27,773 nt of DNA, taken from a virus (taxonomy: Duplodnaviria; Heunggongvirae; Uroviricota; Caudoviricetes). The stretch is taken from IMG/VR virus record IMGVR_UViG_2531839178_000008, positions 1 to 27,773 of that record; one strand, written 5' to 3'. A program made the position numbers and the translations under genes. Below the pieces are notes generated by a model. That model did no database searches. It was not told the origin of the DNA and saw nothing but the letters and a program-made list of their open reading frames with translations. Below are positions 15,738 to 20,247 of the stretch, piece after piece (position 1 is the first letter of the stretch; each line of letters begins with the position of its first letter).

Positions 15738-15872
15738 AGGTATCAACATAACAAAATCGTTATATGCATTCAAGGCCTGTAGTTGACGACAACACATATC
15801 CGGGGCTATATTCCTCACGCGCCAGCAAAATCTGGCGTCGGGATTGGAACCCCGGATATCGAAACGGTGCAT

Positions 15873-15892
15873 ACCGCGCTGGCGGTTTTTTT
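15873..15892 (+). terminator. weak intrinsic terminator in the nin region
   Basis: ACCGC-GCUG-GCGGU followed by T7 on the + strand. Confidence 0.35.
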
Positions 15893-16055
15893 ATGCGCTA
15901 AGCACAGTCACATTCGCGATTTATGGCGGGCTGTGTGGGGGCACCGAAAGGTGCGCCGGATGTTTCGACCGGTAGTTCCAACCCTGCACAGTTCGCCACC
16001 CGATGATTGGAACCTGAAGGTGGTGAGGTAAAAATTATCGAAACGCGAGGTCGTT

Positions 16056-16742
16056 ATGACTGTTCAAGTTGCTGTCAAAAACCTTTCCCCTGTCACTTAT
16101 AACCAGATTCCTGTAATCACAACTGAGTTACTCGCCCGCCTTTACGGAACAGAAGCAATCCGTATACAGCAGAATCACCATGAAAATAAATCTCGATTTA
16201 TTGAGGGAAAACACTTCTTTAAAGCTGTTGGTGATGAGCTCAAAAATTTGCGACTAGTTTTAAACGAGTCGCAAAATGAGGTGAAAATTTCTCCAAAAAC
16301 CCGCTCCCTCATCCTCTGGACAGAACGCGGCGCAGCTCGTCACGCGAAGATGCTCGAAACCGATCAGGCATGGGACGTGTTCGAAAAACTGGAAGACTGC
16401 TATTTCAGCCAGACTTCGAAAAGCGCAGGTCATCACGAGAAGAAAACCAGCGAGCTTTCTGCAAAAGATGCAAACAGTCTGGTATGGTTGTGGGATTATG
16501 CCAACCGCTCACAGGTATTATTCCGCGAACTGTATCCGGCGCTAAGACAAATTCAGTCTAACTATTCCGGCAGATGCCACGACTACGGTCATGAGTTCTC
16601 GTATGTTATCGGAATGGCGAGAGACGTTTTAATCAATCACACACGAGATGTTGATATTAATGAGCCAGACGGACCAACGAATCTTTCTGCATGGGTAAGA
16701 CTTAAGAACAAAGAATTACCTCCTTCACTACATCACTACTGA
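16056..16742 (+). CDS. ORF6N-domain protein (antirepressor-like)
   Basis: N-terminal ..[35 protein letters not shown].. (NKxRFxEGKH signature); GAGG ribosome-binding site. Confidence 0.65.
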
Positions 16743-18197: not shown

Positions 18198-18382
18198 ACG
18201 CCACAATTCAAACGATACCAGAGCTTCTTATCCAGACACGAGGCAATCAGACCGAAGTGGCGAGGATGCTTTCCTGCGCAAGAGGAACAGTGCTCAAGTA
18301 CAACCGAGACAGCAAAGGCGAGCGTCACGTAATAGTTAACGGCGTCCTGATGGTCAAACAGGGCAAGAGGGGAAGACGATGA
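18194..18382 (+). CDS. ninH: NinH
   Basis: ..TIPELLIQTRGNQTEVARMLSCARGTVLKY..VIVNGVLMV.. matches lambda NinH as recalled; position immediately before Q. Confidence 0.75.
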   Translation: MNATIQTIPELLIQTRGNQTEVARMLSCARGTVLKYNRDSKGERHVIVNGVLMVKQGKRGRR

Positions 18383-19002
18383 GACTCGAAAGCGTAGCTA
18401 AATTTCATTCGCCAAAAAGCCCGATGATGAGCGACTCACCACGGGCTACGGCTTCTGACTCTCTTTCCGGTACTGATGTGATGGCTGCTATGGGGATGGC
18501 GCAATCACAAGCCGGATTCGGAATGGCTGCATTTTGCGGTAAGCATGAACTCAGCCAGAACGACAAACAAAAGGCTATCAACTATCTGATGCAATTTGCA
18601 CACAAGGTATCGGGGAAATACCGTGGTGTGGCAAAGCTCGAAGGAAATACTAAGGCAAAGGTACTGCAAGTGCTCGCAACATTCGCTTATGCGGATTATT
18701 GCCGTAGTGCCGCGACGCCGGGCGCAAGATGCAGAGATTGCCACGGAACAGGTCTGGCAGTTGATATAGCCAAAACAGAGCAGTGGGGGAGAGTTGTCGA
18801 GAAAGAGTGCGGAAGATGCAAAGGTGTCGGCTATTCAAGGATGCCAGCAAGTGCAGCATATCGCGCTGTAACGATGCTAATCCCAAACCTCACCCAACCC
18901 ACATGGTCACGCACTGTTAAGCCGCTGTATGACGCTCTGGTGGTGCAATGCCACAAAGAAGAGTCAATCGCAGACAACATTTTGAATGCGGTCACACGTT
19001 AG
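18379..19002 (+). CDS. Q: late-gene antiterminator Q (lambda type)
   Basis: 207-aa product beginning MRLESVAKFHSPKSPMMSDSPRATASD with a CRDCHGTG...CGRCKG zinc motif, essentially the lambda Q sequence as recalled. Confidence 0.9.
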   Translation: MRLESVAKFHSPKSPMMSDSPRATASDSLSGTDVMAAMGMAQSQAGFGMAAFCGKHELSQNDKQKAINYLMQFAHKVSGKYRGVAKLEGNTKAKVLQVLATFAYADYCRSAATPGARCRDCHGTGLAVDIAKTEQWGRVVEKECGRCKGVGYSRMPASAAYRAVTMLIPNLTQPTWSRTVKPLYDALVVQCHKEESIADNILNAVTR

Positions 19003-19044
19003 CGGCATGATTGCCACGGATGGCAACATCTTAACGGCATGATA

Positions 19045-19073
19045 TTGACTTTTTGAATAAAGTTGGGTAAATT
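19045..19073 (+). promoter_or_regulatory. late promoter pR'-like (with associated qut region)
   Basis: -35 TTGACT (19045..19050), 17-bp spacer, -10 TAAATT (19068..19073), as in lambda pR' immediately downstream of Q. Confidence 0.6.
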
Positions 19074-19262
19074 TGACTCAAGAATGGCAGGTTTATATCC
19101 GTTCACATTCTTTCGGTTTTTTACCCACCTCATCTTTAAGTTGTGACTGCTCCCCGCCCTGTCGGGCGAGGGTTTACGGCGTTTTTCGCTAAGCGCACTG
19201 ACATGCGCATCATAAACTCGGGAGCACATAGGAATAGAGCCTGCTTTCGGGATTTTTTATTT

Positions 19263-19337
19263 GGGTCAGTCGTATAAAGGTCATTACGGAAGGCTGTTAA
19301 CCTTCTTATCGTGGTTCGAGTCCACGCTGTCCCGCCA
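19263..19337 (+). tRNA. tRNA-like gene, anticodon GUU (Asn-like), atypical
   Basis: Canonical T arm CGTGG-TTCGAGT-CCACG, anticodon arm GAAGG-CTGTTAA-CCTTC, encoded CCA; but acceptor stem has a U-U mismatch and the D arm is only 3 bp. Confidence 0.4.
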
Positions 19338-19342
19338 AACAT

Positions 19343-19418
19343 GCTGGTTTAGCTCCAATGGTAGAGCAGTCGCCTTGTAAGCGAATGGGTAGCGGTTCAA
19401 GTCCGTTAACCAGCACCA
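19343..19418 (+). tRNA. tRNA, anticodon UGU (Thr)
   Basis: Manual fold: acceptor GCTGGTT/AACCAGC, D arm GCTC-CAATGGTA-GAGC, anticodon loop CTTGTAA, variable TGGGT, T arm AGCGG-TTCAAGT-CCGTT, discriminator A, encoded CCA; 76 nt. Confidence 0.65.
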
Positions 19419-19534
19419 TAACTGAGCCGTAGCCACTGGCTATCCTGAATTCATCAGTGACAGTTACGCTGCGGCCTTCTTTTTCCCTTCCCAATATAAG
19501 AACTACGCCATCCGTTATTTGCGGAGGTGAGGCT

Positions 19535-19750
19535 ATGAAATCCATGGACAAAATATCAACGGGCATTGCCTACGGCACCTCCGCAGGCAGTGCCGGCTAC
19601 TGGTTTTTACAGTGGCTTGATCAGGTCAGTCCATCACAGTGGGCTGCGATTGGTGTGCTGGGAAGTCTGCTTCTGGGGCTTCTGACTTATCTGACGAATC
19701 TGTATTTCAAAATAAGAGAAGATAAGCGTAAGGCTGCGAGAGGTGAATAA
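19535..19750 (+). CDS. S: holin, phage 21 S21 (pinholin) type with dual-start motif
   Basis: [44 protein letters not shown]... with two in-frame starts (M1, M4) as in S21; GGAGG ribosome-binding site. Confidence 0.85.
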
Positions 19751-20247
19751 TGTCGCCATCATTACGCAAGGCTGTTGCAGTTGCTATTGGTGGCGGGGCT
19801 GTTGCTATAGCATCTGTGTTAATCACTGGCCCAGGTGGTAACGATGGTCTGGAAGGTGTCAGCTACATACCATACAAAGATATCATTGGTGTATGGACTG
19901 TATGTCACGGACACACCGGAAAAGACATCATGCCTGGTAAAACGTATACCGAAGCAGAATGCAAAGCTCTCCTGAATAAAGACCTTGCCACTGTCGCCAG
20001 ACAAATTAACCCGTACATCAAAGTCGATATACCGGAAACAACGCGCGGCGCTCTTTACTCGTTCGTTTACAACGTGGGCGCTGGCAATTTCAGAACATCG
20101 ACGCTTCTTCGCAAAATAAACCAGGGCGATATCAAAGGCGCATGTGACCAGCTACGTCGCTGGACATATGCTGGCGGTAAGCAATGGAAAGGGCTGATGA
20201 CCCGTCGTGAGATTGAGCGTGAAGTCTGTTTGTGGGGGCAGCAATGA
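19750..20247 (+). CDS. R: SAR endolysin (lysozyme, phage 21 R21 type)
   Basis: N-terminal weakly hydrophobic Gly/Ala-rich SAR segment ([20 protein letters not shown]) followed by a lysozyme-like domain; start overlaps the holin stop (TAATG). Confidence 0.85.

Follow-up and report, generated by a model that had tools for sequence, protein, structure and literature searches.

The late region of phage 21 was reportedly first characterized by Guo, Kainz and Roberts in 1991, and a pair of genes for tRNA-Asn and tRNA-Thr has been annotated ever since in that region. Phage 21 (OL657228, AJ237660), Sf6, SfI, HK446, mEp506, Kapi1 and BTP1 share the order Asn-Thr and the 5-nt spacer of the pair studied here, and the papers on SfI, phage L and epsilon34 report tRNA genes at the equivalent position, traced to phage 21 and Sf6. 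The pair is also labeled by the NCBI pipeline in E. coli genomes. The phage 21-type cassettes are placed directly after the leader terminator and ahead of a conserved box and the lysis genes. Other tRNA genes are known from the late leader of lambdoid phages: in the 933W-like Shiga-toxin phages, ileZ-argN-argO lie downstream of Q and upstream of stx, and the usual account of them is rare-codon decoding. They likewise lie between Q/pR' and the lysis genes, but decode AUA and AGA/AGG and are unrelated in sequence to the pair described below. The SfI paper also cites an ileX gene close to stx2.

Two tRNA-cleaving defences are relevant to the isoacceptors of the pair. Belukhina et al. (PMC12409363) found that AriB, the Toprim nuclease of PARIS, cleaves Lys(UUU), Thr(UGU) and, less efficiently, Asn(GUU) of E. 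coli. The cut falls between nt 40 and 41 of U36-A-A-U39-C40-N41, the change of U39 to A abolishes cleavage (the essentiality of U39 comes from tRNA-Lys), and D-loop contacts were proposed for AriB. The T5 versions of the three tRNAs jointly neutralize PARIS, all three being needed for growth rescue of E. coli once PARIS is activated (PMC12409363). A preprint of July 2026 (10.64898/2026.07.10.737580) identified P2 OLD as a tRNase that depletes host Thr(UGU) among other tRNAs. Thr(UGU) of HK446 supplied in trans restored near wild-type plating of HK97, HK542 and Bas34, while E. coli Thr(UGU) gave no such rescue; a single tRNA neither rescued lambda nor relieved OLD toxicity, and tRNA stability was shown directly only for a Bas32 tRNA. 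Because HK446 also encodes the inhibitor Oad2, the authors gave little weight to a role of the HK446 tRNA in defence and preferred a reading related to lysogeny.

We analyzed a stretch of 27,773 nt (the window, 27.8 kb), in which ARAGORN found exactly two tRNA genes, both on the + strand. The features of the late leader and the adjacent genes are as follows.

18379-19002, + strand: Q, late antiterminator gene of the lambda type (205/207 residues identical to lambda Q)
19045-19073, + strand: late promoter pR' (-35 TTGACT, 17-nt spacer, -10 TAAATT) with lambda-type qut region
about 19088-19240, + strand: late leader body, orphan sequence, neither lambda-like nor 21-like
19217-19262, + strand: tR'-like intrinsic terminator, hairpin 19217-19251 followed by AUUUUUUAUUU
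19263-19337, + strand: tRNA-Asn(GUU), 75 nt, anticodon 19296-19298, discriminator G73, CCA encoded (ARAGORN, Rfam)
19343-19418, + strand: tRNA-Thr(UGU), 76 nt, anticodon 19376-19378, G1-C72, C2-G71, A73, CCA encoded (ARAGORN, Rfam)
19419-19490, + strand: conserved boundary box (AACTGAGCCGTAGCCACTG...), long hairpin 19426-19475 followed by a U-rich tract
19535-19750, + strand: pinholin/antiholin gene of the S21 type, 71 aa or, with the second start, 68 aa; 68/71 residues identical to phage 21 S21
19750-20247, + strand: SAR endolysin gene of the phage 21 type, sharing 156/165 residues with its phage 21 counterpart

Both tRNA genes are genuine. The covariance-model search, which the sequence-only reading had named as its own check, gave 55.3 bits (E 1.5e-9) for tRNA-Asn and 61.5 bits (E 3e-11) for tRNA-Thr against Rfam RF00005, above the gathering score of 29 bits, and each gene matched the model over its full length (positions 1-71). 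No RF00005 match was found on the - strand, and the ORFs that overlap the pair, whichever their strand, are short and accounted for by the tRNAs. ARAGORN and Rfam returned the same coordinates, lengths and anticodons as had been folded by hand, namely a 75-nt tRNA with GUU and a 76-nt tRNA with UGU.

The covariance-model alignment located the acceptor-stem mismatch and the short D arm that had been noticed in the GUU tRNA: the non-standard pairs are U4.U69 in the acceptor stem and U13.U22, the latter leaving a D stem of 3 bp. The label 'tRNA-like' given to this gene on account of its atypical features was nevertheless too cautious, as the score is high and the mismatches are conserved in the family. 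Conversely, the UGU gene had been described as canonical; it is a tRNA, yet it bears a G27.A43 mismatch in the alignment and, on inspection of the sequence, has C in place of A at position 14 (window 19356), which varies between C and T among related contigs. A at tRNA position 14 is near-universal and the partner of U8, and tRNA-Thr departs from this; the D-loop contacts proposed for AriB in the PARIS paper (PMC12409363) may make C14 relevant to that nuclease. C14 is the sole exception among the conserved features. The anticodon loops, CUGUUAA (Asn) and CUUGUAA (Thr), have 7 nt with U33 and a purine at position 37, the T arms GGTTCGAGTCC and GGTTCAAGTCC match the T-loop pattern GTTCRANNC, and GG is found in both D loops. 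AsnRS depends on the identity elements G34, U35, U36 and G73 and ThrRS on G1-C72, C2-G71, G35 and U36, and all of these are found in the two window tRNAs.

Over its full 156 nt, the pair matches the phage 21 record AJ237660 at 100% identity. Phage 21, Sf6 and HK446 have the same two tRNA bodies, and tRNA-Asn is also identical to the copies of phage L and JLK-2012. At the megablast level, 79 phage records match the region, many of them with annotated tRNA-Asn/tRNA-Thr, and around the pair of the BTP1 prophage the sequence agrees with the window at 98.2% identity. A 381-nt query with the pair at its center (19150-19530) was matched by 1043 of the 5426 complete E. coli genomes, and the matches listed bear PGAP annotation of tRNA-Asn/tRNA-Thr. 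In E. coli FDAARGOS_944, the locus is 99% identical to that of the window. The feature is thus the already known phage 21/Sf6-type tRNA-Asn/tRNA-Thr cassette, as the genes at this position were described in the SfI, phage L and epsilon34 papers, and there is nothing new in it as a sequence feature.

The cassette is not a fixed part of this type of leader. Among the 117 usable IMG/VR contigs with the AACTGAGCCGTAGCC box, 59-60 carry the Asn and Thr genes at the same offset and the remainder are without tRNA. The promoter regions upstream of the cassette were of the lambda type in 13, of the 21 type in 16 and of other types in 30 cases, and either S21 or lambda S follows downstream, indicating that the cassette assorts independently of its neighbors. 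Copies identical to those of the window were found in 43 (Asn) and 39 (Thr) of 59 IMG/VR contigs. The spacer between the genes, AACAT in the window, is either AACAT or AATAT across the family. In tRNA-Thr, G5-C68 is replaced by U5-A68 in 4 related contigs, a compensatory change, while U4.U69 of tRNA-Asn was never repaired in the 59 contigs. The identical copies, the compensatory change and the unrepaired pair together indicate selection on a working tRNA with a conserved mismatch in tRNA-Asn.

Two relatives deviate in the second gene, and neither of these second tRNAs was called by ARAGORN. In phage L (MW013502; 481-552 of the stretch examined), the gene annotated as 'tRNA-Leu(TAA)' is a derivative of Thr(UGU) that is 4 nt shorter, with 89% identity to the window over the whole pair, and may be a decayed or re-purposed Thr(UGU) copy. 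The second tRNA of JLK-2012 (NC_049942; 1281-1356 of the stretch examined) is a chimera, in which nt 1-26 are those of the phage Thr gene (26/26) and nt 27-76 are near E. coli thrU (46/50), suggesting that a phage and a host tRNA gene have recombined. Downstream of the chimera lies a gene for tRNA-Gly(UCC), an isoacceptor that is likewise reported among the targets of OLD.

The sequence-only reading had set the pair between pR' and the holin gene in the late leader, and the positions of pR' (19045-19073) and of the holin start (19535), as well as the annotations of phage 21, Sf6 and phage L, agree with this. The surrounding leader is composite. The pR' site is the only promoter-like site in 18950-19600, and the segment 19003-19087 aligns with lambda and matches the pR'/qut annotated in HK620, P22, HK97 and relatives at 95-96% identity. 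The designation of the leader as lambda-like holds for this segment but not for the leader body (19088-19240), which is neither lambda-like nor 21-like. A distant-mode search with the body yielded no match among phage records; in E. coli, identity of 99% or higher is limited to 2 genomes, and coverage of 80% or higher is reached in 17. A GC-rich hairpin segment within the leader (19151-19194) occurs at about 91% identity in more than 400 E. coli genomes, at other and mostly unannotated places.

The terminator that follows the leader body has 10 outer pairs, including 3 G.U, and 2 inner pairs in a local fold, and its AUUUUUUAUUU ends one base before the 5' end of tRNA-Asn. The 3' arm and the U-run (about 19233-19260) align with lambda tR', while the 5' arm of lambda tR' is replaced in the window, leaving a weaker terminator: its fold energy is -12.5 kcal/mol, whereas lambda tR' reaches -26.9 and the terminator of phage 21 reaches -20.2. 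The absence of tR' from the window had been considered, as a simple terminator scan was blank and a first fold gave a 4-bp hairpin, and was rejected when the local fold gave the 10-bp stem before the U-run; the scan probably missed the element because the loop exceeds the limit of the scan. Behind the tRNA genes, the boundary box is common to lambda, phage 21, Sf6 and HK446. Its hairpin folds at -23.4 kcal/mol (z -3.9), and in the record of phage L a terminator is annotated past the tRNAs and ahead of the holin gene. Judged from folding, conservation and the phage L annotation only, the hairpin is probably a second leader terminator or an element of processing or stability. As for the flanks of the pair, which had been likened to the lambda tR' and S-upstream regions, the resemblance holds for the 3' half of tR' and for about 60 nt past the tRNAs (19419-19480), whereas the sequence beyond about 19480 is that upstream of phage 21 S21 and not that upstream of lambda S.

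In comparison with the described loci, the window shares the type of the lysis genes with phage 21 (S21/R21), but phage 21 has its own Q/QBE upstream of the cassette while the window has lambda Q and a lambda-type pR'/qut. HK446 combines lambda Q and the cassette as the window does, but retains the full lambda 6S leader and lambda S. The rare orphan leader body and the weaker tR' hairpin set the window apart from both. The window is a natural recombinant, a mosaic prophage in which an orphan leader joins lambda Q/pR' to the lysis genes of phage 21.

Between the U-run of tR' and the box, lambda has 163 nt (44782-44944) and the window has 159 nt (19261-19419). No similarity between the two segments was detectable, their alignment scores being no better than those of shuffles (global z 1.1, local z 0.6), and at the lambda locus no tRNA was found by ARAGORN or by Rfam even at E<=10. 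A decayed tRNA pair in the 163-nt segment of lambda is therefore rejected as a reading. Since unrelated segments of 163 and 159 nt lie between the same boundary sequences, the cassette amounts to a module replacement; of the two possibilities raised from the sequence alone, an insertion into or a replacement within a lambda-like leader, it is replacement that the comparison bears out. The cassette travels as an independent, interchangeable module between two conserved boundary sequences.

Given the position downstream of pR' and tR', the pair is presumably made mainly under Q antitermination, as part of the late transcript from pR', from which RNase P and 3' trimming would release the tRNAs. 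Low-level expression in the lysogen is probable through read-through of the rather weak tR'. The pR' promoter is constitutive in lambda. This, together with the weak tR' and the second terminator-like hairpin past the pair, makes expression of the tRNAs without that of the lysis genes plausible in the lysogen. As worded, the BTP1 transcriptome paper implies that both tRNA genes of the prophage rank with the highly expressed loci when the lysogen is cultured, though the high spontaneous induction of BTP1 could be the source of part of this signal. For the modified leader of the window itself, expression and processing are deduced from the arrangement described above.

Regarding the function of the pair, we compared the anticodon stems with those of the host at the positions attacked by the two nucleases. 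The isoacceptors themselves match the nuclease targets, Thr(UGU) and Asn(GUU) for AriB and Thr(UGU) for OLD. The AriB site reads UAAUCA in thrU and UAAUCC in asnT, but UAAGCG in tRNA-Thr and UAACCU in tRNA-Asn of the window, so that both lack the host U39 required by AriB. The T5 tRNAs that counter PARIS have UAAGCA and UAAGUU at this site; thus G39 occurs in T5 Thr, T5 Asn and the window Thr, and C39 in the window Asn. In the 5' strand of the Thr anticodon stem (nt 27-31), where OLD cuts, the host has ACUGA and the window GUCGC. Because the stems differ from those of thrU and asnT at the AriB and OLD positions, decoding of ACA and AAC/AAU could continue after cleavage of the host tRNAs. The HK446 Thr gene that acted in trans is identical to tRNA-Thr of the window. 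The chimera of JLK-2012 carries the host UAAUCA site.

The same isoacceptors occur together in unrelated settings. In P7 and P1, Asn(GUU) and Thr(UGU) are neighbors in the same order, directly adjacent in P7 (525-678 of the stretch examined), and the N4-like phage VEc25 (237-486 of the stretch examined) has the same order with a tRNA-Ser between them (ARAGORN); the genomic context of the P1/P7 and N4-like pairs is unrelated to that of the window. Thr(UGU) of P7 and VEc25 are 62/76 and 67/76 identical to that of the window and have the C31-G39 pair in common with it. Their Asn tRNAs, at 42/76 and 45/75 identity, come from another lineage in which the acceptor and D stems are ordinary, and that of P7 keeps the host-like UAAUCA. 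T5 shares two of its three PARIS-countering isoacceptors with the window, which has no tRNA-Lys, and T5 Thr and Asn are not closely related to those of the window (48/76 and 46/78 identical). T5 is moreover a virulent phage with an array of 24 tRNAs, whereas the window represents a temperate lambdoid phage with a two-gene cassette.

Altogether, we propose, with a probability of roughly 55% and from sequence comparison and the published work, that the window carries a functional phage 21/Sf6-type cassette whose products are predicted to be nuclease-evading replacement tRNAs, with ACA supply as a second role. The pair would replace the host tRNAs once these become scarce or are cut by Toprim tRNases borne by P2/P4, and added capacity for ACA, a codon rare in the host and over-used by the phage, would be a secondary benefit. 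We word the replacement role with reserve, since the resistance to AriB is a prediction, the functional data concern the Thr tRNA only, no tRNA-Lys is encoded, and the authors of the OLD work prefer another reading. Lys(UUU), which is absent from the cassette, is the main PARIS target. It also counts against the proposal that ACA is most enriched in the early genes, which are mostly translated before the late-made tRNAs appear.

The alternative that survives best, although we regard it as unlikely, is pure codon supplementation, in which the pair only adds decoders for over-used codons and speeds late synthesis, with no evasion of nucleases. With 42 annotated E. coli K-12 genes as the reference, the genes of the window over-use ACA 2.5-fold: its share of the Thr codons is 31% for early genes and 17.5% for late ones (the portion of the late operon inside the window), as compared to 10% in the E. 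coli sample (Fisher p 2e-13 for early and 0.018 for late genes). E. coli has a single gene for Thr(UGU), thrU, which fits such a need. Likewise, the SfI paper gives ACA as 17.3 in the phage versus 7.1 in the host, and the phage L paper notes that 24/25 Asn codons of the major capsid gene are AAC. However, the enrichment of ACA is weakest in the late genes, which are co-expressed with the tRNAs, and ACA ranks only seventh among the over-used codons, AGG, AGA and AUA being far more over-represented and left without a phage tRNA. No AAC/AAU bias was found in the window (AAC 54% in the phage versus 63% in the host, with similar overall use of Asn), nor was one found in SfI, whose authors arrived at a similarly mixed picture. 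With ACA enrichment mixed and AAC/AAU unbiased, supplementation accounts in part for the Thr tRNA but not for the Asn tRNA. It also leaves unexplained why every phage Thr(UGU) copy has C31-G39 in place of A31-U39, and why extra E. coli Thr(UGU) failed to rescue where the HK446 tRNA succeeded.

A role of the pair as a cis-acting RNA element is considerably less probable. On this view, the tRNA folds are there mainly to be processed by RNase P/RNase E, which would separate off the pR' leader and define the 5' end or the stability of the lysis mRNA, and the released tRNAs would be by-products or inactive. The setting of the pair, sandwiched between two strong leader hairpins and beginning one base past the terminator U-run, would suit such an element, as would the decayed second copies of phage L and JLK-2012, from which it follows that an intact second tRNA is not always kept. 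On the other hand, anticodon loops, identity elements, T loops and CCA are conserved and the acceptor stem shows compensatory changes; the identical HK446 Thr tRNA is active in trans, outside the leader; and lambda and about half of the related leaders have no tRNA at all.

That the pair makes up for a host tRNA gene broken by the integrating prophage, as suggested for HK446 (10.64898/2026.07.10.737580), is in our view very improbable, even though many carriers use tRNA genes for integration, the attP of HK446 resembles thrW and SfI enters thrW: thrW encodes Thr(CGU) and not Thr(UGU), thrU and the asn genes are not among the named attachment sites, an intact thrW is rebuilt on integration according to the phage L paper, and the late operon, where the cassette is located, is a long way from int/att, a region that the window does not include. 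Phage 21 integrates into icd, which is no tRNA gene.

Some other elements were noted elsewhere in the window. An ORF of 117 aa in the early-left region (2304-2657, - strand) is 71% identical to HK446 gp27 (Oad2, the reported anti-OLD protein) over its first 55 residues only, and no homologue of gp33, the OLD trigger of HK446, was found in the window. An Abc2 homologue (97% identical) lies at 3116-3409 (- strand) in the same region. A full-length lambda cIII thermoregulator element (Rfam, 88.5 bits) was found at 5601-5659 (- strand), at the start of a cIII-like ORF. At 15806-16003 (+ strand), a c4-a1b1 target element, the Hfq-binding sRNA isrK and the C4 antisense RNA stand in tandem (Rfam, 50-75 bits), immediately upstream of an antirepressor-like (Ant) ORF at 16056-16742. 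The segment 15806-16742 looks like a P1/P7-style antisense-controlled ant module in a lambdoid nin region.

Returning to the nuclease-evading replacement tRNAs, a broader claim can be made only tentatively, and we hold it to be somewhat short of an even chance: the Asn(GUU)+Thr(UGU) pair may be a dedicated counter-defence module of temperate enterobacterial phages against Toprim tRNases (PARIS AriB, P2 OLD) encoded by competing elements of the P2/P4 type. Our literature search found no such claim for the lambdoid cassette as a whole, and the HK446 preprint (10.64898/2026.07.10.737580) tested the Thr tRNA only and favored another explanation. If true, the claim would account for the recurrence of the two genes together in lambdoid, P1/P7 and N4-like phages, for the 31-39 pair and nearby stem positions being unlike those of the host, and for the retention of the Asn tRNA despite the lack of codon bias. 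The recent work on tRNA-cleaving defences offers a testable reason for these particular isoacceptors, and, should the counter-defence role be true, a prophage element matched by about one-fifth of complete E. coli genomes would be an anti-defence locus.
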